Assembly (NCBI GenBank): GCA_024231215.1
Contig: JAAEQR010000034.1
Location: forward strand, 12,668-76,667
Direction of reading: 5' to 3'
Origin: PVC group bacterium
GTDB lineage: Bacteria > Omnitrophota > Gorgyraeia > B26-G9
DNA: 64,000 bases
The notes under the pieces were generated by a model. The model saw only the letters and a program-made list of their open reading frames with translations. It did no database searches and was not told the origin of the DNA. Position 1 is the stretch's first letter; every line of letters begins with the position of its first letter. Positions 23,999 to 46,338 of this stretch are shown here, piece after piece. A program made the position numbers and the translations under genes.

Positions 23999-24054
23999 GT
24001 TCTCGCCTTCCGAGTTCTCGCCTTCCGAGTTCTCGCCTTCCGAGTTCTCGCCGA
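23999..24054. repeat. iteron-like direct repeats, 3.7 x 15 bp (GTTCTCGCCTTCCGA)
   Basis: Units at 23999-24013, 24014-24028, 24029-24043, and a partial unit 24044-24054; GC-rich island in AT-rich DNA. Confidence 0.8.
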
Positions 24055-24067
24055 GTGTAACGAAAAT

Positions 24068-24226
24068 TCTCAAAACCAAAAATCCTGGATTTTCGAAATT
24101 TTTTCCAGCACCGAAAAGAAACATTTTTTGATGTTTCTGCAGCACCGAAAAGAAACATTTTTTTGATGTTCCTAGACTATCCCGAAAATTTTCAGAATCG
24201 AAAAAACCAGGTTTTTCGAAATTTGA
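24068..24226. repeat. cluster of inverted repeats plus a 33-bp direct repeat (x2) in a non-coding leader
   Basis: AAAATCC-t-GGATTTT (24079-24093); two copies of CAGCACCGAAAAGAAACATTTTTTGATGTTTCT (24106-24138, 24139-24172), each holding palindrome AGAAACAT-n6-ATGTTTCT; CGAAAAAACC-a-GGTTTTTCG (24199-24218). Confidence 0.7.
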
Positions 24227-24257
24227 AATTTTTTAAAAAACCCTTAATAATAAATTT

Positions 24258-24310
24258 AAGATTTATAAAAATCTTATACCTAGCTATCAATAATAAAAAT
24301 TGATAGCTAG
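24258..24310 (-). promoter_or_regulatory. early-gene promoter/hairpin cassette (TTGATA-17-TATAAA; hairpins A 24258-24275, B 24280-24310)
   Basis: Hairpin A AAGATTTataaAAATCTT; hairpin B CTAGCTATCAAT-aataaaa-ATTGATAGCTAG (12-bp perfect stem). Confidence 0.5.
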
Positions 24311-24320
24311 TTACAAAATT

Positions 24321-25220: not shown

Positions 25221-25249
25221 AATAGTTAACCCTTTTTAATAATAAATTT

Positions 25250-25302
25250 AAGATTTATAAAAATCTTATACCTAGCTATCAATAATAAAAATTGACAGCT
25301 AG
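25250..25302 (-). promoter_or_regulatory. early-gene promoter/hairpin cassette (hairpins A 25250-25267, B 25272-25302)
   Basis: Same A/B hairpins as 24258..24310, one mismatch in B's right arm. Confidence 0.5.
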
Positions 25303-25316
25303 CTACAAAATTTCAA

Positions 25317-26615
25317 TTAAATTCCCTTTTCAATACAAGCTTGCAAAAATTGCTTGTATTTTAATTTTCTAGCCATTTCAAGAACATTTTGCCAGTTCAT
25401 TTTTTGAATTGACATTATACTATCATTTTCGGCGATAATAGCAATCAAATTAGTTAATTGCATAAATCCAATTAAAGAATTTATTTTTAATGTTCCGCGC
25501 CATAATCTAAACTCAATTGTTGAAATGGGTATTAAATTAACACTTTGATAGCGTCCTTGCTTGACATTTTTTTCTTTAATGCCAGTGACAAGCTTTTTAT
25601 TTAATTTTCCTAGATCTTCATTTTTATGACAATAATTCAGATTATTTCTTTTTGAGAAAAGAAATAAATGTTGCCACAATTTCTCGAAAATTAAACAAAT
25701 TTTAGTTGCTGACAATTCATAATTTGAAAAATATTGACGATTTACATGGATATGAAATCCACAATTTCCCGAATTATGAGAAACGGCATTATAATCACGA
25801 CATATTTCAACTAATTTTTGTAAAGGGAATTTATTGACAAAAAAATCTAGAGTGCAAGGTTGTGAACAAATTTCAATTCCTAGATCTGACAATGAACCGT
25901 CTGTTTTTAAATAAAAATATTTTTCATTTTCACTTAAATTATATAATTCATAAACTAAATCGGGTACATTATCAATTTTTTCAATCTCTAGCTCCCAACC
26001 TAAAAACAAGTCAGTTGCTTTTTTTTGTGAAATGGAATGAAAAGTCATTCTATTCGGTGTATAATCATAATTATGTAAGTGTTCAATGCACCCATGATCA
26101 TTATAGCAATCTTCACAATAAGATCGGTGACATGATTCACAATAATAAGATTGATCATCGTGATATAAATCACCACAACGTGAACACGTAAAGTATTCTT
26201 CTAGACAATTTTCGCATAAACAATGATCATTATTATAATGATAATGATCATTGTCCCGATGTATATCACATTCACAACTATCACAAACTAGGTAATCATT
26301 TTCATAACAAGTTTGACAAACTATTCTATTTCCATCATTTATAGAAATAGAATCATCATTAAGATGAACATTTCCGCAATCGTCACACTCAAAAAATAAT
26401 TCCTCAAAACATTCTTCACAATAATTTTTTCTGTTAATTCGCTGTAGATTTTCCCTATCTCTTTCAAAATGTTCCTTACAATGACTACACTTAAAAACAT
26501 TGTTTTTAAAACATTCTGAACAATAAGAAAAATCCTCATTGTGATATTCAGTTACAACTTGTCCACAACTAGAACAAACTTTTTCCGCTTGTACTTCTTT
26601 TTCCTCTTTTTCCAT
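25317..26615 (-). CDS. Amidoligase_2-family-like protein with N-terminal Cys-rich zinc-ribbon repeats
   Basis: N-terminal ~190 aa hold more than ten C-x2-C pairs; the C-terminal half has GWELEIE, KTDGSL..GIEICSQP and CGFHIHV, resembling amidoligase (GS-like) motifs. Confidence 0.45.
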   Translation of the reverse strand: MEKEEKEVQAEKVCSSCGQVVTEYHNEDFSYCSECFKNNVFKCSHCKEHFERDRENLQRINRKNYCEECFEELFFECDDCGNVHLNDDSISINDGNRIVCQTCYENDYLVCDSCECDIHRDNDHYHYNNDHCLCENCLEEYFTCSRCGDLYHDDQSYYCESCHRSYCEDCYNDHGCIEHLHNYDYTPNRMTFHSISQKKATDLFLGWELEIEKIDNVPDLVYELYNLSENEKYFYLKTDGSLSDLGIEICSQPCTLDFFVNKFPLQKLVEICRDYNAVSHNSGNCGFHIHVNRQYFSNYELSATKICLIFEKLWQHLFLFSKRNNLNYCHKNEDLGKLNKKLVTGIKEKNVKQGRYQSVNLIPISTIEFRLWRGTLKINSLIGFMQLTNLIAIIAENDSIMSIQKMNWQNVLEMARKLKYKQFLQACIEKGI

Positions 26616-26646
26616 AATATTTAACCCTTTAAATAATTATAAATTT

Positions 26647-26697
26647 AAGGTTATAAAAACCTTATAACTAACTATCAAAAATTATTTGATAGTTAGA
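26647..26697 (-). promoter_or_regulatory. early-gene promoter/hairpin cassette (TTGATA-17-TATAAC; hairpins A 26647-26663, B 26668-26697)
   Basis: A AAGGTTataaaaAACCTT (compensated variant of AAGATTT/AAATCTT); B CTAACTATCAAA-aattat-TTTGATAGTTAG. Confidence 0.5.
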
Positions 26698-26712
26698 TAC
26701 AAAATTTTAAAA

Positions 26713-26988
26713 TTAAACAGACTCGGATAATATGCAATCTAGACAATAATTTTTCCCATTTATTTTATTTGTCTTTTCTTTATATCTTTCAAAATATCCA
26801 TTGCAATGGCTACACTTAAAAATATTTTTTAGATACGTTTTTTCTTTTCGGTCAAATAATGTAATCTCTTTCCAAATTTTGTTATTTGACTTAACATTAA
26901 AACGATCAATCGCCTGTTTTTTATAACAGTATGTCCACTCATAAACCGTTCCGCCATTTCGTACCATTGTTATTAAAAATCTTTTCAT
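26713..26988 (-). CDS. small zinc-ribbon protein
   Basis: CSHCNGYFERYKEKTNKINGKNYCLDC. Confidence 0.45.
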   Translation of the reverse strand: MKRFLITMVRNGGTVYEWTYCYKKQAIDRFNVKSNNKIWKEITLFDRKEKTYLKNIFKCSHCNGYFERYKEKTNKINGKNYCLDCILSESV

Positions 26989-27018
26989 AATATTTAACCC
27001 TTTAAATAATTATAAATT

Positions 27019-27069
27019 TAAAGTTTATAAAAAACTTTATAACTAACTATCAAATAATATTGATAGTTA
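27019..27069 (-). promoter_or_regulatory. early-gene promoter/hairpin cassette (hairpins A 27019-27037, B 27042-27069)
   Basis: A AAAGTTTataaaaAACTTT; B CTAACTATCAA-ataat-ATTGATAGTTAG; TTGATA-18-TATAAA on the minus strand. Confidence 0.45.
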
Positions 27070-27082
27070 GATACAAAATTTT

Positions 27083-27226
27083 ATTAAGCTATTTTTTGCC
27101 TGATTGCATTACGTCTAGAAAAAACTTTACCATTTTTATCAACTTCAAAAATGGTTTGAACATAAATAATTTTATTTCTTAAGTCTACAGCTTTTATCCA
27201 TTTTGTTTTTTTGATAATTTTCATTT
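27083..27226 (-). CDS. small basic protein (47 aa)
   Basis: Manually translated MKIIKKTKWIKAVDLRNKIIYVQTIFEVDKNGKVFSRRNAIRQKIA; AGGAAT SD; not in track. Confidence 0.3.
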
Positions 27227-27235
27227 TTTTTATTC

Positions 27236-27652
27236 CTAGATTATATCATATTTACGGAAAAGAGAAAAAACTTTACTTGTAATAAAATTAAAATAATTAA
27301 AAATTATTTTATCTTTATCATCATTACAAAGTTTGATATTTTCCCAATTTTCAAAAAGTGAAACAATATCTTTTTCAGATTTAGCAATTTTAAAACAGGA
27401 ACTTTTATTGGAAAGCCACTCTTTAAAGGCTAATTGTTTAGTTAGCCCTTTATATGGTTTTATTCGATAATAACCATACTGTTCCATAAAAATATCATGT
27501 AGAAATTCAAGCTTTGAAGCATTGGTCAAATTGCCGTAAAAATAATTGCTATGATCAATACTATCTAAAATATACTTACTACTTTTTTGATATAACTTTT
27601 CATTAGACATAATAAGCCCCTTTTTTAATTTAATATTTAAACATAAAATCAT
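27236..27652 (-). CDS. hypothetical protein
   Basis: 138 aa; first gene of the leftward arm next to the control region. Confidence 0.45.
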   Translation of the reverse strand: MILCLNIKLKKGLIMSNEKLYQKSSKYILDSIDHSNYFYGNLTNASKLEFLHDIFMEQYGYYRIKPYKGLTKQLAFKEWLSNKSSCFKIAKSEKDIVSLFENWENIKLCNDDKDKIIFNYFNFITSKVFSLFRKYDII

Positions 27653-28139
27653 TTTAATAATTATAAAATGACTTTATGTAAAAACATTATAAATAATGTT
27701 TTTACAACTAATTACATTGAAATCTGAAATATACAATTAAAAAATGCATATCGCTTGTAATTAGATTTTAGGGTTTTTATTATGTTAAAGGGTTTTGATT
27801 GGGATTACTTTATTTGATTTACTTGCTTTTTGCAAATTTCCGGTTTGCCCGTTTTCAATCAATCAAGATGTTTAAAACATCTTTTTTTTCATCCGTATAT
27901 TTTCAAAGATCAATAGTTAAAAACAACTATTTTGAAATAAACATTTAACATATAAAATCATTAAATATTTATTTACTAACTGTATATAGTATCGCTATAT
28001 ATAGTCAATTTGTCAATAGCTATTTTAAAAAAATTGCCTTTTTTTAGAAAAAAATTCAATAAGTTAGTCTAGCCTAATTTAGCTAATTATAACACTAATT
28101 AGAAAGTAGTAACACGATTTATCCTACACAATTTAAGAA

Positions 28140-33458: not shown

Positions 33459-33485
33459 TTGACAAAATAATTTGATATTATAAAT
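33459..33485 (+). promoter_or_regulatory. promoter AAAAAGTG-TTTGACA for the 17-gene sugar operon
   Basis: TTGACA 33459-33464 preceded by AAAAAGTG; AT-rich -10 candidates (TATTAT / TATAAAT) downstream; AAAGGAG SD and ATG at 33514. Confidence 0.45.
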
Positions 33486-33513
33486 TAAATATACATATAA
33501 AGGAGCAACATAG

Positions 33514-34512
33514 ATGCCAAAGATACTAATGCTTGATCCTAACCCTAAATCTGCAGTTTCTTTTTATCGCAGTATCGGGACTTTTTCATATCTTCACAGG
33601 TTAGACCCAAATGTTCATTACGAACTGCTTTCCGTTTACAACTGGAATACATGGATGGGCGCAGATATTCTGTATGTGCAGAGGCCATACGCTGACGATC
33701 ATCTTGGAGCGATAGTTGAAGCACAAAAATGTAATGTAAAAGTGTGGGTTGACACAGATGATTTACTTCATGAAATCCCGAATTACAATCCTAACCACAG
33801 AACTTTTAACAATCCTAAAGAAAAATTCCTGGATAATTTCTTAAACTCAGTAAAAAGAGCGGATGTTGTTACTGTTACAACTGAAGTTTTAAAGGATTAT
33901 TATTCTGAGTACAATGAGAATGTTCAGATAGTGGAAAACGCTCACAATGATTATGCTTTCCCTTTTATGAAACTTATCGGGGATTCAGCAAAGGCAATAA
34001 ACTGGAGAGGGAGCAACACTCACCGGATGGACGTTCTATCGGTTGCTCAACAGATAGTGAATGTCCGTGAAAAGCATAAAGACTGGAAATGGATTTTTGT
34101 CGGAAACGATTTATGGTATATAACAGAACTTCTCAAAGGGAACGCCATAGAGATTCCCGAAAAACCTATTCTGACATTCTTTGAACTCCTCAGAACCGTC
34201 GGCAGTTCTATACAGGTTGTCCCTCTCGTTGATAATAATTTTAATCGTGCTAAATCCTCTATATCCTGGATAGAGGCTACTTATGGGGGAATGACTACGG
34301 TTGCTCCGAACTTCCCAGAGTTTAATAAGCCGGGCTGTTTGTGTTATGAAGGAGAAGAACAGTTTGAATATTATCTTGAGAAATGTATTAAATCTAAAGC
34401 TTTTCGTCAGGAAAATTATGAGAAATCCTTTAAGTATATAAAGGAAAACTTACTGTTAAGTCAGGTTAACCGGAAAAGGATGGATATCATAAACGAGTTG
34501 AGGAATAAATGA
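33514..34512 (+). CDS. putative glycosyltransferase (GT-B-like), first gene of the sugar operon
   Basis: 332 aa; Rossmann-like C-terminal half; weak assignment. Confidence 0.3.
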   Translation: MPKILMLDPNPKSAVSFYRSIGTFSYLHRLDPNVHYELLSVYNWNTWMGADILYVQRPYADDHLGAIVEAQKCNVKVWVDTDDLLHEIPNYNPNHRTFNNPKEKFLDNFLNSVKRADVVTVTTEVLKDYYSEYNENVQIVENAHNDYAFPFMKLIGDSAKAINWRGSNTHRMDVLSVAQQIVNVREKHKDWKWIFVGNDLWYITELLKGNAIEIPEKPILTFFELLRTVGSSIQVVPLVDNNFNRAKSSISWIEATYGGMTTVAPNFPEFNKPGCLCYEGEEQFEYYLEKCIKSKAFRQENYEKSFKYIKENLLLSQVNRKRMDIINELRNK

Positions 34513-35027
34513 TAGTTGCAGATTATATAGTCAAGTATCTTGAAGATTATGGAGTAAAACACTGCTTCTCCGTTGTCGGTGGAGGGAGCATGTGGTTGAA
34601 CAACTCTTTCGGAAAATCAAAGAAAATTAAAACTGTATATATGCACCATGAACAGGCTTGCGCGATTGCCGCAGAGGGATATTCCCGAGTGAATAATGAT
34701 TTGTCTGTGGTTTGTGTCACCACTGGCCCCGGAGGATTAAACTGTCTTACAGGGGTAATGGGGCAATGGACGGATTCTGTCCCTGTCCTGTATATTTCAG
34801 GACAGGTTGATTCAAGAACAATCAAAACAAGTAATCTTCGTCAGTTGGGGGATCAGGAAGTTGATATAATTAGTGCGGTTAAACCAATAACCAAATTCTC
34901 TCTTTTATTAAGGGATAGTATTGATTTGTATTTTTGGTTGCGTATTATGATTAACACGGCGATGGCGCATAGGAGAGGGCCAGTGTGGATTGATATCCCC
35001 TGGGATGTTCAAAAAGAAAAGGTATAA
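34509..35027 (+). CDS. TPP-dependent enzyme, N-terminal (Pyr) domain subunit (ALS/YerE-like)
   Basis: YIVKYLEDYGVKHCFSVVGGGSMWL...HHEQACAIAAEGYSRV...VVCVTTGPGGLNCLTGV...DSVPVLYISGQV: canonical TPP_enzyme_N including the catalytic Glu in HEQ; stop overlaps the next ATG (TAATG). Confidence 0.75.
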   Translation: MIVADYIVKYLEDYGVKHCFSVVGGGSMWLNNSFGKSKKIKTVYMHHEQACAIAAEGYSRVNNDLSVVCVTTGPGGLNCLTGVMGQWTDSVPVLYISGQVDSRTIKTSNLRQLGDQEVDIISAVKPITKFSLLLRDSIDLYFWLRIMINTAMAHRRGPVWIDIPWDVQKEKV

Positions 35028-35452
35028 TGAATATAGAAAGATATGAGAACCCACTGATAATAGCTGGTCACGGAATACGCTTATCTGGCGCGATAGATTT
35101 ATTCCACGAATTGTTAGACAAGTTAAATATCCCCGTAGTTACAACCTTTAATGGATTTGATATAGTAGCTTCTGATCATCCGAATTTTGCAGGAAGAATA
35201 GGAACCATGGGTACTCCCGAAGGGAATAAGATATTAAGGGAAGCGGATCTGGTTTTGTGTATAGGGACTCGGAACAATGTCAGGCAAATAGGTTATAAGA
35301 AAGAGGCCTTCGCCAAGAGTGCAAGAAAAGTGGTTCTTGTGGATGTGGATGAAGATGAATTATATAAAACTGGCGTTGGTTTAAAAGTGAGAAGGTTCTG
35401 TTGCATGGATGCGAAACAATTTATTCAGGAGTGTTTGGATTACGATGATTGA
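35027..35452 (+). CDS. TPP-dependent enzyme, central domain subunit
   Basis: PLIIAGHGIRLSGA...LNIPVVTTFNGFDIVASDHPNFAGRIGTMGT...ADLVLCIGTR aligns with the ALS central domain; TGA overlaps the next ATG (ATGATTGA). Confidence 0.7.
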   Translation: MNIERYENPLIIAGHGIRLSGAIDLFHELLDKLNIPVVTTFNGFDIVASDHPNFAGRIGTMGTPEGNKILREADLVLCIGTRNNVRQIGYKKEAFAKSARKVVLVDVDEDELYKTGVGLKVRRFCCMDAKQFIQECLDYDD

Positions 35453-35999
35453 TCCATATAATTTTATAAAAGTATTAACAAAAAATTTACCGGAAGACGC
35501 TATAGTGGTTTGCGCTAATGGAACCCCATGCGTTACAATGTTTCAAGAAGGTGTTGTCAAGAAGGGGCAGAGGATCTTCTGGAACTCCGGATGTGCTGCC
35601 ATGGGTTATGCCCTTCCTGCTGCGATAGGGGCTCATTATGCAAGTGGCAAAGAAGTAATCTGCATAGAGGGTGACGGGAGTTTGATGTTTAATTTACAGG
35701 AACTTCAGACAATAGACCACCATGAGCTCCCGATTAAATTGTTCGTATTTAACAATGGTGGTTATCACTCAATAAAGGAAACTCAGGATGTTTTTTTTAA
35801 AGGCGATTATCATGGCAGTGCCTTGGGAGATGTTAGTTTTCCGGATTGGGAAGAAGTCGCGGAAACATTCAACTTCCCATATTTTGTTATGGATGGGGAC
35901 GATAGAGGTGTGATTGCTCACTTCCCTTTTAATAAGTTTAAAAATGTTTTTATTGAAGTTAAATTAGGTGAATATAAATTTAGGAGGCAGGAATTATGA
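35445..35999 (+). CDS. TPP-dependent enzyme, C-terminal (PP) domain subunit
   Basis: TPP-binding motif GDGSLMFNLQELQTIDHHELPIKLFVFNNGGY (GDG-x25-NN); start taken at the in-frame ATG 35445 overlapping the upstream stop, rather than track 35409. Confidence 0.75.
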   Translation: MIDPYNFIKVLTKNLPEDAIVVCANGTPCVTMFQEGVVKKGQRIFWNSGCAAMGYALPAAIGAHYASGKEVICIEGDGSLMFNLQELQTIDHHELPIKLFVFNNGGYHSIKETQDVFFKGDYHGSALGDVSFPDWEEVAETFNFPYFVMDGDDRGVIAHFPFNKFKNVFIEVKLGEYKFRRQEL

Positions 36000-36463
36000 A
36001 TGGTTATCAAGAGCCTTGTCCTAAATGCGGGACACTTTCTTCCGGCTGTTCGGTCTTCACGAACGGGGCGATTTCTCAAGACTTTTGTAAATGTCCTGAA
36101 TGCGGTATTGCTTTCCCAAAAAAGGGTTCAACGGCAAAAGTTGAAATAATTGATGATGAAGAATTCTTTTCGGTACCCAAACCAGAAAAATTCTCATTAA
36201 AAGAAATATGTATTTGCGCAGCAGTAAAAGCAGTTGATGGAACCATTATTCGTGGACACAGGCACAGGGATTGTAGAGATGGGATAATAAGGAGAGGGAA
36301 AGAACCCATGAAAGAATGGGCTGGAGATGGTTTTATCACTTCTTACGGGAGGTTCGTTGACAGGATAGAGGGTTACGAGTTGATGAAATCTATCGACTGG
36401 GAATCTGTTAATCCGGAAGGGTATCAGAAGTGTGAGTGGTTATTCTCGGAAGATTTATATTAA
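35996..36463 (+). CDS. zinc-ribbon protein with uncharacterised C-terminal domain
   Basis: CPKCG...CKCPECG; ATGA-coupled to the upstream gene. Confidence 0.45.
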   Translation: MNGYQEPCPKCGTLSSGCSVFTNGAISQDFCKCPECGIAFPKKGSTAKVEIIDDEEFFSVPKPEKFSLKEICICAAVKAVDGTIIRGHRHRDCRDGIIRRGKEPMKEWAGDGFITSYGRFVDRIEGYELMKSIDWESVNPEGYQKCEWLFSEDLY

Positions 36464-36478
36464 AAGAGAGGTATAATT

Positions 36479-37261
36479 ATGAATAAGTTAGAATACGAAA
36501 TGATTGAAACTCTTAAGCGCTTGAAGAATGATTATGGGTGTATACAGATTAAGGCTGAGTTCGAGAACGAGGGAAGTCGTCAGGTAGAACTTTGTCGGCT
36601 TAAAGATGTAATAAGCAAAGTAGACATACCGTTAATTCTTAAGATTGGCGGTGTAGAAGCAGTAACAGATATATACGAGGCCTTGACGATAGGGGCGAAG
36701 GGGATAGTTGCTCCCATGGCCGAAACTGCTTACGCGCTTTCTAAATTTATTGATGCTGTGGAAAAATTCGTTCCGAAGGATAATCGGGAAGATGTTGAAT
36801 TTGCCGTGAACATTGAGACTATTACAGCGTATGAAAATTTTGAAAAAATGCTTAAATTAAAGAACATTGATGTTCTCCAAAGCGTGACAGTCGGGCGGGT
36901 GGATTTTACAGGTTCACTCGGGGAAGATAGAAATTATGTTGATACAGTAACAATGCGTGAACTTTGCAAAAATATCTTTTCTAAAGCTAAGGCTAAAAAT
37001 TTACGAACAGCTTTGGGCGGGGCTATTTCTTCTGCGTCAGAAACTTTCCTGGAAACTTTAACTGAAGAAAATTTATTGAACAAATACGAAACTCGGAAAA
37101 TTGTATATGATATCGAAGGGTTAAAAACCTATAAGGAAGGTTTAGAGGAAGGAATAAAATTTGAACTTCAGTGGTTGAAAAGTAAAGAGAGATATTATCA
37201 TCTGATAGCAATTGAAGACGAAAAAAGAATAAAAATGTTGGAGGAGAGAGTCAATGGGTGA
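36479..37261 (+). CDS. TIM-barrel aldolase/lyase-like protein (HpcH/HpaI or PEP-utilising family?)
   Basis: 260 aa; KIGGVEAVTDI...IVAPMAETAYA resembles aldolase/lyase barrels; weak. Confidence 0.3.
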   Translation: MNKLEYEMIETLKRLKNDYGCIQIKAEFENEGSRQVELCRLKDVISKVDIPLILKIGGVEAVTDIYEALTIGAKGIVAPMAETAYALSKFIDAVEKFVPKDNREDVEFAVNIETITAYENFEKMLKLKNIDVLQSVTVGRVDFTGSLGEDRNYVDTVTMRELCKNIFSKAKAKNLRTALGGAISSASETFLETLTEENLLNKYETRKIVYDIEGLKTYKEGLEEGIKFELQWLKSKERYYHLIAIEDEKRIKMLEERVNG

Positions 37262-38300
37262 GTGTGGAATATGTGGTCATGAATTAAACAAAGACGTTCT
37301 GGTTCTGGAGAATATCCCGGAAAAAACATTCTGTTTCTCAGACAAAACTGTTACTTTAAACATCGCGAAGTGTGGTCACTGCGGAGTAGTGCAGTTATTT
37401 GACGTTCCATTAAACGATGATTTCAGGGATGTCCATCGAAGTATAGAATCAATGCCCGGCCACCGGATGAAAAAGAAGAAAGACTTGGACGATTTTATAG
37501 AAGAGTTTGGTTTGTGGAGCAAAAGGTTTTTCGAAATGGGTTGTGGCAATGGACAGTATTTGGATATTCTCAGGGAAATAGGTGTTGAGTGCGACGGGTA
37601 TGAAGCCAATGAAGACAACATAGATGAATGTATAGACAAAGAGTATTGTGTTTCCGACGGTGTTGCTTTTAAAGAGGAAATTTTTAATAAATATGATGTT
37701 ATTTTTTCTTTTTATTTTTTAGAGCATATGCCTGATCCGGTGGATGTCTTAACAAATGTTTATGACAAGCTTAACCCCGGAGGGATGATTTACATAGAAG
37801 TCCCGAACTATAAGTACATAGAAAAAGATGGGCTCTGGCTTGAGTTCACAAGAGACCACAGGTTTTATTATGACCTTTCTTCTATGAGATTTTTATTATC
37901 AAAAACTGGCTTCAAATTGCTTAAGATAACTCCGGGAGACTTGACTTTAAAAGTGATAGCGAAGAAACCGGACGACTTCGAGAATGTCCGGGAAAGCATG
38001 GAAAAAGACATAGTCGATTTTGATATATTAACTAACAAGATAGGAAATTATGTTATAGTTGGCGCAGGACATTATACTCAAACACTGTTAAACAAGACTG
38101 CTAATAAGCCTGTACAAATATATGATTCCGTTCCCGACAAGATAGGGAAAATTCTTTGTGGAGTGAAAATTTTACCCCAGGGAGAGATTCGGGATTGTGA
38201 ATTTAATAATATTATTATAAGTTGCGGGGCGTACAATCAAGAAGCGGAGAAAAATATTGAAAGACTTACGGAAGGAAAGAATATAATTATCTGGGGGTAG
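37254..38300 (+). CDS. SAM-dependent C-methyltransferase-like (N-terminal zinc ribbon + class I MTase + C-terminal Rossmann-like domain, TylC3/NovU architecture)
   Basis: CGICGHEL...CGHCG; MTase motif I FEMGCGNGQYLD; the three-part layout matches NDP-hexose C-methyltransferases. Confidence 0.55.
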   Translation: MGECGICGHELNKDVLVLENIPEKTFCFSDKTVTLNIAKCGHCGVVQLFDVPLNDDFRDVHRSIESMPGHRMKKKKDLDDFIEEFGLWSKRFFEMGCGNGQYLDILREIGVECDGYEANEDNIDECIDKEYCVSDGVAFKEEIFNKYDVIFSFYFLEHMPDPVDVLTNVYDKLNPGGMIYIEVPNYKYIEKDGLWLEFTRDHRFYYDLSSMRFLLSKTGFKLLKITPGDLTLKVIAKKPDDFENVRESMEKDIVDFDILTNKIGNYVIVGAGHYTQTLLNKTANKPVQIYDSVPDKIGKILCGVKILPQGEIRDCEFNNIIISCGAYNQEAEKNIERLTEGKNIIIWG

Positions 38301-38301
38301 C

Positions 38302-39402
38302 ATGTCGTATACACAGAGAGAAGAACAAGTAAGAGAGTCTATTGAAGTTCGCAAACCTGTCGCATGGGCTAAGATTCAGCAAACTGACCAGAGAGTAAAA
38401 GAAGGAAAAAGCATCGCCCTTTTACAACTGCAATACAGATATGTCTGTAATGAAGTTTGCAAACACTGTGCTATAGAACGGTTTAAAGTTAACTTGGAAG
38501 GTAGAAAATTAACTCCTGCCGATGTGAAAGATATTGCAGATCAGGCTCATGAGTATGGGCTATTTTCTATCTGCATTTCGGGAGGTGAACCGTTAATCTT
38601 TCATGATCTGGAACAGGTAATAGACGCTATCGGCCCAGAAAGATTCATATTATCAATGGACACTAATGGGTTGGCTTTATCTCAACATGAGATAAAATGG
38701 CTGGTAACGAAAGGGGTTGACCGTATTCACCTGAGTATTGATGGGTTACAGGAAAATCACGACGAGTTTAGACACGAAGAAGGAGCATGGCAGCATAATA
38801 TAGACATGCTTCCATATTGTAAACAGTATGGGCTTGGAGTTGTTGTGAACATAGTTGCCACTAAAGATTTGGTAAGAAGCAGAGAAATAGAAGAACAACT
38901 TGAGTTTATACAGAAGTTTGGTTTTCATGCTTCTTTGATTTATGCGAAACCAGTTGGTAATTTTGAAGAGGCTGGAGACCAGGTTTTAAACAAAAAAGAT
39001 TTTGCATATCTTGAAACTTTAACGAAAAAGTATAACTGTTCAACTCACCTTACTCCCGCTTACGGCAGAGATGTTGGCTGTCTGTGTTTCAAGCGCCACT
39101 TTTCAATACTGCCAAACGGGAAAGTCCTTCCCTGTCCATGGCTCCCGATTTCTATGGGGAACGTACTGGAAGAAAAACTGGAAACAATTATAACAGGGTC
39201 GTTGATGAATCCATGGTTTAGCTGGAAGCATAAACACACTTGTCATTCGGGAAATCAGGATTCTTATTTTTATAAAAATGTTGTTTCTCAGTTAGATGAA
39301 CTCCACGATCTCTTTGGATATCCGGTTGACTGGAAATTGTTGAATTGGCATTTTGAATACTTCAGGAAGAGTTCCACTAAAATTACTGAGAAGGGGAGCT
39401 AA
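38302..39402 (+). CDS. radical SAM enzyme with SPASM/twitch-like C-terminal Cys cluster
   Basis: CNEVCKHC (C-x3-C-x2-C), ISGGEPL, C-terminal CLCFKRHFSILPNGKVLPCPW. Confidence 0.75.
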   Translation: MSYTQREEQVRESIEVRKPVAWAKIQQTDQRVKEGKSIALLQLQYRYVCNEVCKHCAIERFKVNLEGRKLTPADVKDIADQAHEYGLFSICISGGEPLIFHDLEQVIDAIGPERFILSMDTNGLALSQHEIKWLVTKGVDRIHLSIDGLQENHDEFRHEEGAWQHNIDMLPYCKQYGLGVVVNIVATKDLVRSREIEEQLEFIQKFGFHASLIYAKPVGNFEEAGDQVLNKKDFAYLETLTKKYNCSTHLTPAYGRDVGCLCFKRHFSILPNGKVLPCPWLPISMGNVLEEKLETIITGSLMNPWFSWKHKHTCHSGNQDSYFYKNVVSQLDELHDLFGYPVDWKLLNWHFEYFRKSSTKITEKGS

Positions 39403-40371
39403 ATGGAGATTGGTGAAAGAGATATTGTAGAGGAAGATATAAAAAAAGTATTATCTGAAAATCTGCCATGGAACAGGCTGAGAAATAAAACGATAGCGGT
39501 TTCCGGTTCAAGAGGTTTTATTGCTTCGTGGATAGTTAAATTATTAGAATCAATACAGGAAGAATATAATATTACAATCTGGCATATCAATAAACCTGAA
39601 TATGATATTAACAGGTCTCTGTTCAGTATTGGTGTCCCCAAGAGAGTAGATTATATTTTTCATGCAGCCAGTTATGCGTCACCTCTAAAGTTCAAAGAAA
39701 ATCCTGTAGATGTGATCTTGCCGAATACGATTGGTACTCATAACCTGTTGAAATTGGCAGATGCGAAAGAGGCTGAGTTTGTATACTTCAGCACATCGGG
39801 GGTTTACGGGTGGCATGATTTTGATGACTACCCTTTGTCCGAAAAACAATTCGGCAGACTTGATTGTTCTGAAGTAAAGAACTGTTATCTTGAATCAAAA
39901 AGACTGGGGGAACAGTTGTGTGTTTCTCACAGTTATCAGTATGATATAGAAATCAAGATTCTCCGGCTGGGGATATGCTATGGCCCGGGGTTAAGCCTGG
40001 ATGATGGTCGCGTGATGAATACTTTTATAAAGAAAATACTTGATAAAAAAGAACTACCTGTATACAATGAGCATGTCTATCGGAGTTTTATGTATATAAC
40101 GGATGTTCTTAGCGCAATTTTTACAATTTTATTCCACGGGGAAAATAGCCCATATAATGTATCAGCAGACAAAGAAATTTCCATCCTTCAATTAGCCCAA
40201 TTGTTTTCTTCCATGTACCCGAACTCAAAATTGAGTTACCTAAAACGGACAGACAGGTTGAGTGTTGACTTCAACAGGACATGGATGAATACAGGAAAAT
40301 TGAAAAATCTCGGCTGGGAACAAAGAGTCAGCTTAGAAGATGGTATAGAAAGAACAGTGGAGAGTTACTAG
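39403..40371 (+). CDS. NAD-dependent epimerase/dehydratase (extended SDR)
   Basis: Gly-rich IAVSGSRGFIAS and catalytic Y-x3-K (YLESKRL). Confidence 0.75.
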   Translation: MEIGERDIVEEDIKKVLSENLPWNRLRNKTIAVSGSRGFIASWIVKLLESIQEEYNITIWHINKPEYDINRSLFSIGVPKRVDYIFHAASYASPLKFKENPVDVILPNTIGTHNLLKLADAKEAEFVYFSTSGVYGWHDFDDYPLSEKQFGRLDCSEVKNCYLESKRLGEQLCVSHSYQYDIEIKILRLGICYGPGLSLDDGRVMNTFIKKILDKKELPVYNEHVYRSFMYITDVLSAIFTILFHGENSPYNVSADKEISILQLAQLFSSMYPNSKLSYLKRTDRLSVDFNRTWMNTGKLKNLGWEQRVSLEDGIERTVESY

Positions 40372-41561
40372 TGAGAAAAATATATTACAATGAAGCGATA
40401 ATTGATGAAAACGAAATAAATTCTATATGCCAGTTTATAACAGGGAAAGCCAACAGGCTTGCATATGGAGAAGAAGTTTTAGTGACAGAAAAGAAGTTAG
40501 CTGATTTTTTAAAAGTCAAACATTGTCTTCTGACTAATTCGGGGTCTTCCGCAAACTTGTTGGCTTTTATGGCATTGACATCCCCTGAATTAAAAGAGAG
40601 AAGGATAGAGCGAGATGACGAGATAATAACCACTGCGTTAGGTTTCCCTACAACTATTTCTCCTATCGTGAATTATGGAGCCGTCCCGGTCTTTGTGGAT
40701 GTTGATCTATGGACTATGAATATAAACATAGAAAGAATGAAAGAAGCTTTATCTCCGAAAACAAAAGCTGTAGTGGTGGCGCATACTCTCGGGAATCCTG
40801 CCAATATAGATGCTATAATGGGCTTCTGTGAAGAAAACGGGTTATACTTTATTGAGGACAACTGTGATTCTTTAGGCAGTAAATATAACAATAAACTTAC
40901 AGGCACTTTCGGTGATATTGGAACTTCTTCTTTTTACCCTGCACATGCGATAACAATGGGCGAAGGTGGAGCGGTATACACAAATAATACAGAACTGCAT
41001 AACATAATGCGCTCTATGAGAGACTGGGGAAGAGATTATAAATGTTCGGAATGTACCTGGGACTGCAAGAAAAGATTTGATTCCGGGTATGATTGCAGAT
41101 ATACATATTCTCATTTTGGATATAATTTAAAAGTAACTGAAATGCAAGCTTTAATTTTAAACAAACAAATAGATAAGCTTCCCATGATAATTGAAAAAAG
41201 GAAACTTAACTGGAAGAAATTACGAGTTAAGCTGGATGGTTTAGGTTTTCCTTTTCAAAGCCCTACTCCCAATTCTGATCCATTGTGGTTCTCTTTTGTT
41301 TTAATAGCAAAAGAACATGACAGGGACGACTTAACAGAATATTTAGAAAGAAACGGAATAGGGACGAGAGTTATTTTCGGCGGGAATCTTACAAAACAAA
41401 AATGTTTCAAAACGCTTTCTCCGCTCTACAGGGTGGTGGGGGATCTCAAAAATTCTGACTATATAATGGAGAATGCGTTTTTTATCGGGTGCCATCCTGG
41501 AATGACAGATGAAGACATGGATTACATTGTGGAGGCAATAGAGAGGTATGTTCAAAGATGA
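40371..41561 (+). CDS. DegT/DnrJ/EryC1-family PLP/PMP enzyme with His replacing the Schiff-base Lys (E1/ColD-type sugar 3-dehydratase signature)
   Basis: Family motifs LTNSGSSANLLAF, AVPVFVDVD, KTKAVVVAHTLGNP, FIEDNCDSLGSKY, GDIGTSSFYPAHAITMGEGG; the position of the conserved Lys (FSFhxxKxiT) holds His (PAHAIT); Cys-rich insert CSECTWDC...DCRY; GTG start overlapping the upstream stop. Confidence 0.65.
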   Translation: MRKIYYNEAIIDENEINSICQFITGKANRLAYGEEVLVTEKKLADFLKVKHCLLTNSGSSANLLAFMALTSPELKERRIERDDEIITTALGFPTTISPIVNYGAVPVFVDVDLWTMNINIERMKEALSPKTKAVVVAHTLGNPANIDAIMGFCEENGLYFIEDNCDSLGSKYNNKLTGTFGDIGTSSFYPAHAITMGEGGAVYTNNTELHNIMRSMRDWGRDYKCSECTWDCKKRFDSGYDCRYTYSHFGYNLKVTEMQALILNKQIDKLPMIIEKRKLNWKKLRVKLDGLGFPFQSPTPNSDPLWFSFVLIAKEHDRDDLTEYLERNGIGTRVIFGGNLTKQKCFKTLSPLYRVVGDLKNSDYIMENAFFIGCHPGMTDEDMDYIVEAIERYVQR

Positions 41562-42237
41562 CAAACTCGTAAAGGTAAAGAACACAATATTCAATGATGA
41601 AAATTTAATAAAAATAGGGGATCTGTTCTGGACAAAAGAAGACATCCCTGCGTATGAGTATTTAAAAGATAGCCATAAAAGAGAAATGGAAAGTATTCTC
41701 CCACATCTTGTGGGGAATGAAGTTGCCGTTCAAGCTGGCGGTCACTGCGGATTCGTGATCAAAGAATTAGAAGAACATTTCAAAAGGATTTACACTTTTG
41801 AACCGGATAACACAATGTTCCTGGCTCTTTGCTTGAATGTACCAAATAAAAATGTTTATAAGTTTCAAGCCTGTCTGGGGGAAAGACACAAAATGGTTGA
41901 TATGGAAATAAATCCTATCTGCCCTCATGCTGGAGCAAAGTATGTTAAGGGCAGGGGAAATATTCCAATGCTGGTTGTAGATGATCTCGCTTTAGATTGT
42001 TGTGACCTACTGATGCTCGATCTTGAAGGGAATGAGTATAAAGCCGTTCTTGGAGCATCTGAAACAATTCAGAAATTCCACCCCGTATTGTGTGTAGAAA
42101 GATACTGGGGGCCGAGAACAACTGGGCTTCCAGAGTCATTTTTTGACTCCCTCCTGGGCTACTTAAATTATGAATTAGTTGATAGAGTTGGAGAGAACAA
42201 ACAGGATTTTATCTATAAATATAAGGGGGTCAAATGA
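41548..42237 (+). CDS. FkbM-family methyltransferase
   Basis: VAVQAGGHCGFV and LMLDLEGNEYKAVLGA match the Methyltransf_21 (FkbM) core. Confidence 0.6.
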   Translation: MFKDDKLVKVKNTIFNDENLIKIGDLFWTKEDIPAYEYLKDSHKREMESILPHLVGNEVAVQAGGHCGFVIKELEEHFKRIYTFEPDNTMFLALCLNVPNKNVYKFQACLGERHKMVDMEINPICPHAGAKYVKGRGNIPMLVVDDLALDCCDLLMLDLEGNEYKAVLGASETIQKFHPVLCVERYWGPRTTGLPESFFDSLLGYLNYELVDRVGENKQDFIYKYKGVK

Positions 42238-43109
42238 AACCATATGTTGTCGTCACACCCGGCTACAATTCTTTTTGCGGGGGAATAAAAGTATTACATC
42301 GATTAACCCATTTTCTGAACGAGCATGGAATTCCCGCATACTCAACGGCGGGGGGGACTCCGCCGGACTGGAATGTAAGATTCTTAAAAGACCTGACGCC
42401 ATACGAAATGAAAGAAATACAACAAACTGGTATAGCTGTTTATCCGGATGTTGTATGGGGGAACCCTCTTAAATTCAATAACTGTGTCCAGTATGATTTA
42501 CAGCAAATGAGACCGATCCAGTCTAATATGCTTGGTGTCTCGCTGGAGAATTGTTTCGGTTCTAAAGTAAAACCAGATTTGACTATGATGGTAATATACA
42601 TGGAAGACCTGTTTAAGCTTCCGGAGAAAGAAGAAAGAAGAGGAACCTGTTATTATAAAGGGAAAGGAAAAACAGAATGTTCTGATCCGGACTGGTTAAA
42701 TATTGTCAACATAAGCAGAGAAGATCTGGCCAGATTATATCAAACTTCTGAATTATTAGTCTGCGCGGATAATATGACACAGACTACGGTTGAAGCGAGA
42801 TTATGCGGATGCCCTGTAAGGATGATAGAACCCGGTATGTTGTCATGGGAGAATTATCGTAATGATAACTGGGGAATGAACGGGATAATAATAAATGATG
42901 ATAAAACTATTGAACAGGCGGTTTTAGAACTGCCAGCTTTTAAACAGGATTATGATGAAAGGATGAAAAAGAACAGGGAAGAGTTCCTCCAGTTTGTTGA
43001 GGTTACACAAAACAGGCAAGTGGATTATATTCCACTGGAGTTGGCTTTTCATCCAGGGGTATTTGGGATTAGCCCGGAAATAATGAAAATTTTTGGAGAG
43101 AGGGGATAA
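42234..43109 (+). CDS. hypothetical protein (possible glycosyltransferase)
   Basis: 291 aa, ATGA-coupled. Confidence 0.4.
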   Translation: MKPYVVVTPGYNSFCGGIKVLHRLTHFLNEHGIPAYSTAGGTPPDWNVRFLKDLTPYEMKEIQQTGIAVYPDVVWGNPLKFNNCVQYDLQQMRPIQSNMLGVSLENCFGSKVKPDLTMMVIYMEDLFKLPEKEERRGTCYYKGKGKTECSDPDWLNIVNISREDLARLYQTSELLVCADNMTQTTVEARLCGCPVRMIEPGMLSWENYRNDNWGMNGIIINDDKTIEQAVLELPAFKQDYDERMKKNREEFLQFVEVTQNRQVDYIPLELAFHPGVFGISPEIMKIFGERG

Positions 43110-43110
43110 T

Positions 43111-43818
43111 ATGAGTTACCTTGAACTTAGGGGAAAAGTAGAACAGAACAAACAGCCGATCTGCCATGACTCAGTGTTCATTGCTATTTACACCAATAAG
43201 TGTAAAGAATATTGTGATCAAAGATTTTTCAGTAACCTTTTCAGTTCTAATCTCAATCATGCTTCAGTTAATGTTGTTGATAATTCATCTGATATAGAAT
43301 ACACAAAGAAGTTAGAGAAAATTTGCGAGGACAAAGCCAATGTGTATAGGATTGATATAGATGAGAAAAGGAAAGATGTCCGTTTTCTCCGGAATGTTAC
43401 TGAAAGTGTTTTATTATTGAGAGAAAAATTTTTAGAGGGGAATTGGAAATATTTTATTATACTTGAATCCGATGTTCTGCCGAAAGACAATGAATGGTTG
43501 ACTTCTTTTATGGAGGTGACGGATGAAGCCGATATAATCGGCGGGCTTTATTATATGGGGTTTCATGATCCCGGACTATGGCAGGGGGAAATAAGAGTTG
43601 TCCCGACGCACCATGTTCTCTCCGGTTGTACTTTATATAAAAGAGAAGTGATCGAAAAATATCCTTTTCGGTGGAGCGAAGAGAATCTAGGGGCTTTCCC
43701 GGATGCGTACATTTGTTTTGACGCGGGGAATGAATACAGGTTAGCTAATTACACCAAAATCGTGTGTGATCATTTAGAAAAATCTCAGGGGGATAGGGGA
43801 CATGGAAGAATCTCTTAA
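43111..43818 (+). CDS. hypothetical protein (possible GT-A-like glycosyltransferase)
   Basis: Start at MSYLEL with a GGAGAGAGGGGA SD; acidic motif ILESDVLP. Confidence 0.35.
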   Translation: MSYLELRGKVEQNKQPICHDSVFIAIYTNKCKEYCDQRFFSNLFSSNLNHASVNVVDNSSDIEYTKKLEKICEDKANVYRIDIDEKRKDVRFLRNVTESVLLLREKFLEGNWKYFIILESDVLPKDNEWLTSFMEVTDEADIIGGLYYMGFHDPGLWQGEIRVVPTHHVLSGCTLYKREVIEKYPFRWSEENLGAFPDAYICFDAGNEYRLANYTKIVCDHLEKSQGDRGHGRIS

Positions 43819-44245: not shown

Positions 44246-44786
44246 AGGCCCTTTTGGTGGCGCTCCCGGTCAGGGCAGACCTCCAAAAAGCAAACAGTTA
44301 AAAAACTATGACAAAGCTTTAAAAATTCTTGATGATAATATCGAGAAGGCTTTAGGGGTGTTGGTTGATGGTTTAGAAGCAACAAAAGATATTTACAATA
44401 AAAGCGGAGAAATAATTGCAGAAGATGTTCCAGATAATTATTACCGATTTAATTGTGCTTGTGTGCTAATCAAGAAGGTACTTCCTGATAAAAAGGCAAA
44501 GGAAATCACTGGCCCCGGCGGGGCGCCACTATTACCAACTACTGTTATCGACCGGAGGAAAGTTGTTATGAACATTGTCCGGAAACTTGATGAACTGGAT
44601 CTGGATGAAGTGAAGGAAATGCAGGAAAAGGGTGATTTTAAATTATTTAAAGATGCCGATTATGTGATCGAAGAAGAGGCAGAGGAAGAGAATAATAATG
44701 CTGGAAACAGAATCTCAGAAGACATCGGAAGAGCTACAGAGGGAGAAGCGGAAGAAGAGGTGGAAAGAGCGGAAGAAGAAGATTGA
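44211..44786 (+). CDS. putative terminase small subunit / DNA-binding protein
   Basis: 191 aa, basic N-terminus, acidic C-terminal tail, immediately upstream of the large terminase. Confidence 0.35.
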   Translation: MATKNIESQTRRGPFGGAPGQGRPPKSKQLKNYDKALKILDDNIEKALGVLVDGLEATKDIYNKSGEIIAEDVPDNYYRFNCACVLIKKVLPDKKAKEITGPGGAPLLPTTVIDRRKVVMNIVRKLDELDLDEVKEMQEKGDFKLFKDADYVIEEEAEEENNNAGNRISEDIGRATEGEAEEEVERAEEED

Positions 44787-46338
44787 TGCCGGGGAAGATC
44801 CGAAAGATTTAAAAACTTTTGAAAGGGCTCAAAAGGCTGTTGAACTTCTTCGGATGGATTTCGCAGCAGGGAAAGAAATCCTGGAGGAGTATGAAAGAGA
44901 AGCTTTAACAGCTGTTGTTGTTAAAAAGTGTACAGATGATTTTTATTACTTCTGTAAGTATATATTGGGGAATGATTTGATGATGAGGGAGCCTCATCGT
45001 AGATGGTGTGATGATCATCAAAAAACTGTTTTGGCAAACACAAAACGTGTTATGAGATTAAAGCCGCGTAAGACATTTAAGACTACAATTTATGGACTTG
45101 GCTTTTTATTATGGGCTTGGGGCTGTGTCAGTCATGAAATAAGATTTTTCTATACCTCTTCCAACAAACTGCTTTTAGACGAAGTTGCGGATGGGCTGTC
45201 TCAATATATTGGTACAGAGAAAAATGAGACTTTTTATTCATATCTGTTCGGAGTAACTAAAGACCCGGAAGCCAAGAATACAAGCGATGTTATGAATGTT
45301 CAAGGGAGAGAGGGAAAAGGTTTTTCTCTTATCCTTAGAACTTCCGGGGGAAGCACAGTTGGTATTCACCCAAATGTAATCATTATAGATGACCCTGTCG
45401 GGGAAGATGACCGGAAATATGAGAGTGAACGAAAATCAAAGGAATTATGGTTTGATACACTGCAACCTCTTCTGGTTTCTTTCTATGATGTTAAGACCGG
45501 GATAGAATTTGAATCAATTTTTTACATAGGGACAAGGTGGCACTTAAGAGATTTAGTCTGGCATATACAAGAGGAATTAGTAAAGAAAAAAGGTCAGGTT
45601 TGGGATATAGAATCTGAATCAATAACGAAGGACGGTACTCCCACTGGTGAACCATCCTATCCCGATTTTATGCCAGCAGAAAAGATCAAAGAATTCCGTA
45701 TAAGTATGTCAGAAGAGTTCTTCGCAGCACAAGAACTTAACAACCCAATTGCCCAGGGGATGATTGTTTTTGATTTAGGGAAACTGCACTTTATTCGTCA
45801 GGAACAGTTTGACGCGATAAAATTGTACGGAAAAATCATCTGTGCTTTTGACCCTGCACTGGGGAAGGCCTCTGGTGATTACCCCGCAGTATGGTTCATT
45901 CATTATTACAATGATACAATCACTTTCTTTGACGCAATTGATAAAAAAATAGAAATAGCTTTACTCGTTCATCAAATCGCCTCTAAAAATAAATTATACG
46001 GGTGTCGGACTTTAGTGTATGAAGACAACAATGCAATGCTTATCGGTCAAAGTCTGGAGAAAGCGCACAAAAGAATAAACCACAAAATAGTATTAGACCC
46101 AGTTCACCATGGGAGCGGCAGCAATAAGAGAGAAAGAATTGTTTCCTGTCAGGACGTATTGTATAGTGGCGTAGCTCAGTTTATGAATGATTATGAGAAC
46201 AGATACCCGGAGGCTATGAATCAAGTAGCTTTTTACGGGGCTTATGGTCACGATGATTTTCCGGATGCAATGGAGATGGGAATCAGTTACTTAAACCAAG
46301 AACATTTTAAATTTGTCAGGCACGAAGAATGTCTTTAA
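44698..46338 (+). CDS. terminase large subunit
   Basis: ATPase: LKPRKTFKTT and IIIDDPVGEDD; nuclease: ICAFDPALGKASGDYPAVWF and GHDDFPDAME; N-terminal extent uncertain (overlaps upstream ORF). Confidence 0.75.
   Translation: MLETESQKTSEELQREKRKKRWKERKKKIDAGEDPKDLKTFERAQKAVELLRMDFAAGKEILEEYEREALTAVVVKKCTDDFYYFCKYILGNDLMMREPHRRWCDDHQKTVLANTKRVMRLKPRKTFKTTIYGLGFLLWAWGCVSHEIRFFYTSSNKLLLDEVADGLSQYIGTEKNETFYSYLFGVTKDPEAKNTSDVMNVQGREGKGFSLILRTSGGSTVGIHPNVIIIDDPVGEDDRKYESERKSKELWFDTLQPLLVSFYDVKTGIEFESIFYIGTRWHLRDLVWHIQEELVKKKGQVWDIESESITKDGTPTGEPSYPDFMPAEKIKEFRISMSEEFFAAQELNNPIAQGMIVFDLGKLHFIRQEQFDAIKLYGKIICAFDPALGKASGDYPAVWFIHYYNDTITFFDAIDKKIEIALLVHQIASKNKLYGCRTLVYEDNNAMLIGQSLEKAHKRINHKIVLDPVHHGSGSNKRERIVSCQDVLYSGVAQFMNDYENRYPEAMNQVAFYGAYGHDDFPDAMEMGISYLNQEHFKFVRHEECL

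Follow-up and report, generated by a model that had tools for sequence, protein, structure and literature searches.

Within a 64,000-nucleotide stretch of contig JAAEQR010000034.1 (positions 12,668 to 76,667; hereafter the window), an uninterrupted open reading frame (ORF) of 396 codons with a GTG start was found at 40371-41561 on the plus strand. As judged from its sequence, this ORF quite probably specifies a functional E1-type, pyridoxamine 5'-phosphate (PMP)-dependent nucleotide-sugar 3-dehydrase, carried on a tailed phage of approximately 90 kb, which performs one tailoring step of a sugar cassette. The family, the fold, the catalytic histidine, the cysteine pattern with its distribution and the conservation of the cassette were all observed directly in the comparisons described below. 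The features of the gene are as follows:

40371..41561, plus strand: E1-type (RfbH/DdhC/AscC-like) PMP-dependent nucleoside diphosphate (NDP)-4-keto-6-deoxyhexose 3-dehydrase as predicted from Pfam, NCBIfam, PDB and AlphaFold2 (AF2)/Foldseek, 396 aa, with a short N-terminus
40359..40373, plus strand: GGAG ribosome-binding site and GTG start of the E1 gene
40863..40868, plus strand: Cys165 (E1 Cys193) and Asp166 (E1 Asp194), from the homologue alignment
40926..40970, plus strand: active-site motif SSFYPAHAITMGEGG, residues 186-200, from the alignment to E1
41037..41102, plus strand: predicted iron-sulfur loop with rewired ligands, Tyr223 in place of E1 Cys251 and then C225-x2-C228-x3-C232-x9-C242, from the homologue alignment

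The GTG overlaps the TAG stop codon of the upstream short-chain dehydrogenase/reductase (SDR) gene by one base, an instance of translational coupling, and the GGAG lies 8-12 nt to its 5' side. An alternative ATG start at 40281 would create a 90-nt overlap with the upstream gene; because the five closest relatives (67-73% identical) all start with the same MRKIYYNE, the GTG at 40371 was accepted. An identical protein, encoded on an 89,976-bp contig of a metagenome-assembled genome (MAG), is already named 'RfbH [PVC group bacterium]' in its NCBI record.

The product was matched end to end by the Pfam model DegT_DnrJ_EryC1 (PF01041; 1.2e-85) and scored 502.4 bits against the NCBIfam RfbH equivalog NF011936 (cut-off 423 bits; 9e-151), covering positions 36-437 of the 440 in that profile. 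The best solved relative in HMMER alignments was the Yersinia E1 enzyme, PDB 3bcx (7e-110, 370 bits), with ColD second (1e-53, 185 bits) and ordinary sugar aminotransferases ranking below ColD. An AF2 model built on 109 homologues gave a predicted local distance difference test score (pLDDT) of 89.8, and when the model was submitted to Foldseek the top match was again 3bcx (template modelling score (TM) 0.91, E 6e-47). The protein is a true E1 (RfbH/DdhC/AscC) homologue of fold-type I, and is E1-type rather than ColD-type because of the two-fold difference in bit score, the passing of the RfbH cut-off and the presence of a cysteine-bearing loop. An earlier note on this DNA had placed the ORF in the DegT family, which the Pfam match and the fold bear out, and had predicted a PMP-dependent sugar 3-dehydrase with histidine in place of lysine; that prediction is supported at the level of sequence, and the scores sharpen it to the E1 type.

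In the HMMER alignment to 3bcx, His192 (codon 40944-40946) lies opposite the first histidine of 'YPAHH'. The structure of the H220K mutant, 3bb8, reads 'YPAKH' in this column, which is therefore the column of E1 His220. The Schiff-base lysine expected of a DegT aminotransferase (in 'SF..xK') is thus replaced by His192; there is no lysine in TGTFGDIGTSSFYPAHAITMGEGGAVYTNNT or within 15 residues of His192, and histidine was present at the E1 220 position in 120 of the 120 closest database homologues. The substitution proposed in the earlier note is confirmed, in that the alignment with E1 keeps His192 in the catalytic column and no lysine is nearby that could substitute for it. D166, Y189 and F307 occupy the columns of E1 D194, Y217 and F345, which reportedly distinguish E1 from aminotransferases (Smith et al. 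2008); these are kept in 119-120 of the 120 homologues.

By 3bcx numbering, cysteines occur in E1 at positions 192, 193, 251, 253, 257 and 261. Four of these are conserved among the 120 homologues (193 in 118, 251 in 113, 253 and 261 in all 120), and Cys192 and Cys257 are not. The conserved set agrees with C193-X57-C251-X1-C253-X7-C261, which is reported to be the [2Fe-2S] ligand motif of E1 (Agnihotri et al. 2004). E1 and SpnQ each hold their [2Fe-2S] cluster by four cysteines (PMC8987622). The canonical motif was present in 113 of the 120 homologues and at 77 of 80 E1 loci from metagenomes; the window protein keeps the cysteines at 193, 253 and 261, and has tyrosine at 251.

The stretch CSECTWDC...DCRY of the window protein comprises residues 225-244, and its C225, C228, C232 and C242 correspond to E1 positions 253, 256, 261 and 278. 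All seven homologues with Tyr251 also carry Cys256 (otherwise Gly), Cys278 (otherwise His) and Arg279 (otherwise Lys), so that the Tyr251 variant amounts to a natural experiment on the E1 iron-sulfur site, with one ligand lost and two cysteines gained in strict co-variation. The four loop cysteines are invariant within the clade of the window protein, and position 193 is serine in its two nearest relatives (P0002 and P0003). Judged from this pattern, the cluster of the clade is probably held by the loop-local C-x2-C-x3-C-x9-C and not by C193/C251/C253/C261. The loop is 7-8 residues shorter than that of Yersinia E1, and the ColD loop, which is similar in length, aligns without gaps through the cysteine-rich stretch. 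The earlier note had described a cysteine-rich insert that could be the iron-sulfur site; the stretch does correspond to the iron-sulfur loop of E1, but it is not an insertion, given the gap-free alignment of ColD, and its ligand set departs from the canonical one.

The variant loop occurred at none of the 80 metagenome E1 loci (L008-L087); 77 are canonical and the other three also lack the variant. In IMG/VR it was found on three viral genomes, of 84.9, 89.8 and 50.9 kb, and 185,579 species-representative genomes, when scanned for the pattern, yielded a single partial relative, in which all loop cysteines are lost. This relative (L007) lies at 4-801 of a short Thermoflexia MAG contig, JAUWHU010000155.1, reads RDWGRDYDPDGSPPTLVTGLDEDYDPRY across the loop and may be a cluster-free derivative. 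In the samples examined, the variant cysteine pattern is confined to a small, almost entirely viral group. In a neighbour-joining tree from which the loop was masked, the short proteins of 388-401 aa were monophyletic in 97 of 100 bootstraps. Across relatives 55-73% identical, the ORF and its catalytic residues are kept. The same variant loop is present in a full-length viral E1 (L005), whose gene directly follows those for a cytidylyltransferase and a CDP-glucose 4,6-dehydratase; this context, canonical for a 3-dehydrase, supports a 3-dehydrase role for enzymes with the variant loop.

The E1 gene belongs to a tightly packed cassette on a single strand, which runs from 33459 to a terminase gene. 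Apart from the E1 gene, its features are:

33459..33486, plus strand: best sigma-70-like promoter match of the region (weak), in the gap before the cassette
33514..34512, plus strand: glycosyltransferase (phrog_7162), first gene of the cassette
34509..35999, plus strand: acetolactate-synthase/YerE-like thiamine pyrophosphate (TPP) enzyme in three ORFs (N, 34509-35027; M, 35027-35452; C, 35409-35999)
35996..36463, plus strand: T4_Y16D-family zinc-ribbon protein
36479..37261, plus strand: HpcH/HpaI-like TIM-barrel protein (aldolase/lyase family)
37254..38300, plus strand: class I S-adenosylmethionine (SAM) methyltransferase that begins with a Cys4 zinc ribbon and weakly matches TcaB9, a sugar C-methyltransferase
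38302..39402, plus strand: radical-SAM/SPASM enzyme
39403..40371, plus strand: extended SDR with a Ser/Thr-Tyr-Lys triad and 'TSGVYG' for 'TSEVYG'
41548..42237, plus strand: FkbM-family methyltransferase
42234..43109, plus strand: compact glycosyltransferase of GT-B fold, 291 aa, from a rare family without a Pfam model
43093..43818, plus strand: conserved protein of 241 aa whose DxSxD and ESD motifs are GT-A-like
44698..46338, plus strand: terminase large subunit, start of the virion module directly downstream of the cassette

The cassette carries three glycosyltransferases, two confirmed and one, the 241-aa protein, predicted from its motifs only. The GT-B assignment of the 291-aa protein came from a fold search with its model only; searches of the PDB with a 332-aa protein, with the 291-aa protein and with the 291-aa family profile gave no sequence or profile match. 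The 291-aa family numbers 19 homologues in 5.8 billion proteins. Its members, among them those of the window, L088, L089, L090, L092 and L005, were found only in phage sugar cassettes, most of which also encode a TPP-dependent enzyme of two-carbon transfer and an FkbM methyltransferase. Phi92-like E. coli phages encode distant homologues (23-27% identity) of the first cassette glycosyltransferase, with two matching places in nearly all of the records listed; in Escherichia phage JohannJBalmer (L006; MZ501084.1, 4644-7820) the two copies stand side by side, annotated 'putative disaccharide synthase', and adjoin two other glycosyltransferases plus primase and polymerase genes. The SDR keeps Tyr-x3-Lys and has glycine in place of the catalytic glutamate of UDP-glucuronate decarboxylase and 4,6-dehydratases; from its motifs it is probably a ketoreductase or an epimerase. 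A role for it as a 4,6-dehydratase or UXS-type decarboxylase is ruled out by this exchange of Glu for Gly ('TSGVYG').

The division of the TPP gene into three recurs with identical break points in two further phages (L004, 4124-6132; L091, 1389-2861), and because the same break points are found in three phages the split is not decay. In L001 the gene is fused (3531-5291, 586 aa). At the junction between the N and M pieces of L004 there is an ORF for a homing endonuclease of HNH/NUMOD4 type (4636-5172), which suggests that the gene in pieces was made by homing-endonuclease insertion and then retained.

The gene order is repeated in L001/L003, L004 and L091, and in part in L002, with proteins that are 44-76% identical; the conserved core of the cassette consists of the TPP enzyme, the HpcH-like protein, a methyltransferase, the radical-SAM/SPASM enzyme, the SDR and glycosyltransferases. 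In L001 the FkbM position is taken by a B12-radical-SAM enzyme. Cassettes marked by the 291-aa family keep the TPP enzyme or have a split transketolase in its place, and the slot of the E1 gene varies among them: in L090 and L092 it is occupied by a DegT aminotransferase that bears the lysine, together with a hexapeptide acetyltransferase, and in L088 by an E1 with a canonical loop, after which come an SDR and an iron-sulfur protein of Fer4/LdpA type. Since the occupant of the slot differs between related cassettes, 3-deoxygenation is an optional, interchangeable tailoring step, and the further statement of the earlier note, that this gene defines the chemistry of the whole operon as 3-deoxygenation, fails on the sister cassettes L090 and L092. 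L092 and L005 also encode a nucleoside triphosphate (NTP)-transferase, which indicates that the cassettes act on nucleotide sugars.

Bacterial E1 loci offered a second comparison. Full-length homologues of the TPP enzyme (38-43% identity, E approximately 1e-140 to 1e-150) are found no more than 10 kb from E1 at about 26 of the 80 loci, and at one of these bacterial loci (L062) an HpcH-like gene (54.6% identity) stands beside the TPP enzyme and E1. A cytidylyltransferase was present at 50 of the 80 loci and a CDP-glucose 4,6-dehydratase at 61; this neighbourhood of E1 genes is absent around the window gene, as tblastn with bacterial references found no cytidylyltransferase, CDP-glucose 4,6-dehydratase or E3 in the window or in L001-L004. 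Only two of the 80 loci carry an E3 (AscD/DdhD-type) reductase within 10 kb, so that the absence of E3 from the window is normal and not defining; the textbook pairing of E1 with E3 looks like the exception among these environmental loci. A 313-aa Fer4/LdpA-like iron-sulfur protein is encoded next to E1 in L088 (3692-4633) and directly downstream of E1 in L021 (7410-8369). This protein is a candidate to stand in for the E3 reductase and possibly a dedicated electron donor; no homologue of it was found in the window.

The window is part of the genome of a tailed phage of about 90 kb. On the 3' side of the E1 gene lie the genes for the terminase large subunit, an exonuclease, the portal and the major capsid protein, and the opposite arm encodes a DnaE-type polymerase, a gp32-like protein, a DnaB-like helicase and an SNF2 helicase; strand bias flips near 28 kb, and no tRNA genes were found in the window. 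Relatives of the window protein are recorded as viral genomes in IMG/VR, and the contig matches in size two of the three IMG/VR genomes with the variant loop (84.9 and 89.8 kb). Its filing in a 'PVC group bacterium' MAG probably reflects an error of binning or a phage that went unrecognised in the bin. By such filing, the sugar genes of a phage could be miscredited to the metabolism of the bacterium. When 50,697 phage records were searched by megablast with the cassette, no match was obtained, and the best annotated phage protein matches were of 48% identity (to a 2.6-kb Salmonella fragment) and otherwise of 34% or less; the phage has no close cultured relative.

Several other features of the window were recorded. 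G+C content falls to 0.24-0.30 over 24000-28000 and GC skew changes sign near 28 kb, where the transcription arms diverge; this low-G+C stretch is a possible origin or early-promoter region. On the minus strand, 2928-6602 encodes a DnaE-type Pol III alpha subunit (PHP, NTPase, finger) of 1224 aa with a fused C-terminal domain of the uracil-DNA-glycosylase superfamily; 8730-9377 a short (215 aa) C5-cytosine DNA-methylase-like ORF; 9680-10591 a TIM-barrel glycoside-hydrolase-like protein of 303 aa (GH10/GH5/GH42 matches); and 24321-26615 an Amidoligase_2 protein with a strongly cysteine-rich N-terminus (32 Cys in 432 aa), beside a class-II glutamine-amidotransferase-like protein.

From analogy with characterised enzymes we infer the cofactors, cluster ligands, substrate, electron donor, product and acceptor of the window enzyme, and the steps of its mechanism are carried over from E1. 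The C4 keto group of an NDP-4-keto-6-deoxyhexose would condense with PMP to a Schiff base; His192 would then take the C4' proton of PMP, upon which the C3 hydroxyl would leave. The resulting 3,4-enamine intermediate would be reduced by two single electrons by way of an iron-sulfur cluster in the loop of residues 223-243, and hydrolysis would free NDP-4-keto-3,6-dideoxyhexose, with PMP restored. SpnQ has no dedicated E3 and is served by general ferredoxin/flavodoxin reductase pairs, and the mechanism of E1 has been described in the same source (PMC8987622). As for SpnQ, the electrons would come from general ferredoxin or flavodoxin systems of the host; E1 enzymes probably depend on general reductases as a rule, and this one likely does so too. 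The keto-sugar substrate would be supplied by the host or by genes beyond the window. The sugar would be further elaborated by the YerE-like TPP enzyme, the SDR, the methyltransferases and the radical-SAM enzyme, and the product is probably a 3,6-dideoxy, C-branched (C4) and/or methylated hexose of the yersiniose type, the most economical prediction because the combination of E1, a TPP enzyme and a reductase follows the logic of the yersiniose pathway.

The three glycosyltransferases would finally pass the sugar to an acceptor, most plausibly a virion protein. This acceptor is favoured because the cassette adjoins virion genes in the window, baseplate genes in L001 and tail-fibre-like genes in L089. 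Glycosylation of DNA found no support, there being no match to a hydroxymethylase among the ORFs scanned, while the C5-methylase-like ORF is present in the window.

A number of observations weigh against the assignment of a functional E1-type 3-dehydrase. The canonical ligand Cys251 is absent (Tyr223), and the cluster is only predicted; the loop is moreover the only poorly modelled part of the cofactor-free AF2 model (pLDDT 54-71), as would be expected of a site that needs its cofactor. E1 position 221 is histidine in 115 of the 120 homologues, and this conserved second histidine is replaced by alanine (Ala193) in the window protein only. In the loop-masked tree the long-form variants L005 and P0099 joined the short clade in 0 of 100 bootstraps; a single origin of the variant loop is accordingly unsupported, and either the loop was swapped between lineages or the deep branches of the tree are unresolved. 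Motif and tblastn searches of the 64-kb window turned up no cytidylyltransferase, 4,6-dehydratase or E3 and no ferredoxin or flavodoxin, and the SDR next to E1 is without the acidic residue that dehydratases and decarboxylases have, so that substrate and electron supply are assumed; these gene absences hold for the window, with about 26 kb of the contig lying outside it.

Some of these observations would be accommodated if the protein were a redox-independent 3-dehydratase like ColD, in which elimination of the 3-hydroxyl is followed by hydrolysis of the enamine, PMP is regenerated from glutamate, and the loop cysteines would bind zinc or be structural. Such an enzyme would need no reductase, in keeping with the lack of a reductase partner in the window; ColD ranks second among the solved relatives, Cys251 is missing from the canonical ligands, and the L007 relative, with all of its loop cysteines gone, implies that the family can drop its cluster. 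We nevertheless consider this unlikely, because similarity to E1 is double that to ColD (370 versus 185 bits), the E1-distinguishing residues are kept, and the clade shows no variation in its four loop cysteines, which were gained in concert rather than lost; a site of four cysteines is fully compatible with an iron-sulfur cluster. The histidine is shared with ColD, but four invariant loop cysteines and a ColD score half that of E1 set the protein apart from the ColD type. Still less credible is that the enzyme would serve mainly as a 4-aminotransferase in the infected cell, yielding a 4-amino-4,6-dideoxy sugar by the side reaction of SpnQ. SpnQ does transaminate when no reductase is supplied, although E1 and ColD lack this activity under comparable conditions (PMC8987622); and while a true lysine-bearing aminotransferase fills the same slot in L090 and L092, its companion there, a hexapeptide N-acetyltransferase, is missing from the window cassette, and in the family of the window protein it is histidine, not lysine, that is invariant.

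It could also be argued that the enzyme does not act on a free NDP-sugar but, for instance, on one that is already linked to DNA or protein and has been oxidised by the radical-SAM enzyme encoded nearby, or that the gene is a decaying passenger; we regard this as highly improbable. The window encodes no gene for synthesis of an NDP-4-keto-6-deoxyhexose, the N-terminus of the protein is truncated, and the TPP gene is in pieces. Yet NTP-transferases are encoded in the related cassettes L005 and L092, the ORF and its catalytic residues are conserved among relatives at 55-73% identity, and the pieces of the TPP gene are themselves conserved, at the same break points in three phages; in addition, the combination of a C5-cytosine methylase-like ORF with the lack of a hydroxymethylase match in the scanned ORFs leaves a DNA-attached sugar unsupported. 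The E1-type 3-dehydrase thus remains the preferred assignment.

Beyond this assignment, we tentatively propose that the window protein represents a virus-specific branch of E1, in which the iron-sulfur site has moved to a self-contained C-x2-C-x3-C-x9-C loop, with Cys251 lost and Cys193 dispensable, and which would serve a widespread, undescribed phage cassette, with a TPP-dependent two-carbon transfer step and a rare GT-B family, that makes a 3,6-dideoxy, C-branched or methylated sugar for the virion or another acceptor of the phage's choosing; we hold this broader proposal to be possible rather than probable. If true, relocation of the loop may alter the type of cluster or its redox partner. 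The genes rfbH/ddhC/ascC already feature in lists of viral auxiliary genes (PMC10653327), and the E1 assignment is in itself routine; what is worth following is the rewiring of the iron-sulfur motif and the conservation, in phages, of a glycan cassette whose TPP enzyme comes in three pieces. A pathway of several enzymes for a rare deoxy or branched sugar is here carried by phages, beside the virion genes and along with three predicted glycosyltransferases; if the virion is the acceptor, complex glycosylation in phages would no longer be limited to the examples from mycobacteriophages, and a new source of rare-sugar enzymes would be gained.

Among known systems, the closest is E1 of Yersinia pseudotuberculosis (CDP-6-deoxy-L-threo-D-glycero-4-hexulose 3-dehydrase, 3bcx), with which the phage protein shares its fold (TM 0.91) at 44-48% identity, the histidine in place of lysine, the equivalents of D194, Y217 and F345, cysteines at 193, 253 and 261, and a cysteine-bearing loop following 'RDWGRD'. 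It differs from that enzyme in the replacement of Cys251 by tyrosine and of His221 by alanine, in the extra cysteines at 256 and 278, in a loop shorter by 7-8 residues and in the lack of some 35-40 N-terminal residues, and its gene is borne by a phage, with no cytidylyltransferase, 4,6-dehydratase or E3 nearby. SpnQ (dTDP-4-keto-2,6-dideoxyglucose 3-dehydrase of the spinosyn pathway) is likewise E1-type, with the histidine, a [2Fe-2S] cluster and no dedicated E3, but it belongs to an actinomycete natural-product pathway, and the likeness is one of functional analogy only. ColD (GDP-4-keto-6-deoxymannose 3-dehydratase, 2gms/3gr9) shares the fold, the exchange of lysine for histidine and dehydration at C3, whereas it has no cysteine loop and no need of a reductase, and is about 31% identical to the phage protein.

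The yersiniose pathway reportedly proceeds through E1/E3, then the TPP enzyme YerE and then the reductase YerF (Chen, Guo and Liu, 1998). The phage cassette has in common with it an E1, an acetolactate-synthase-like TPP enzyme and an SDR, and exceeds it by the HpcH-like protein, two methyltransferases, the radical-SAM/SPASM enzyme and three glycosyltransferases; in contrast to the pathway, it has no ddhA, ddhB or E3 in the window, and its TPP enzyme, YerE-like by family, is divided among three ORFs.

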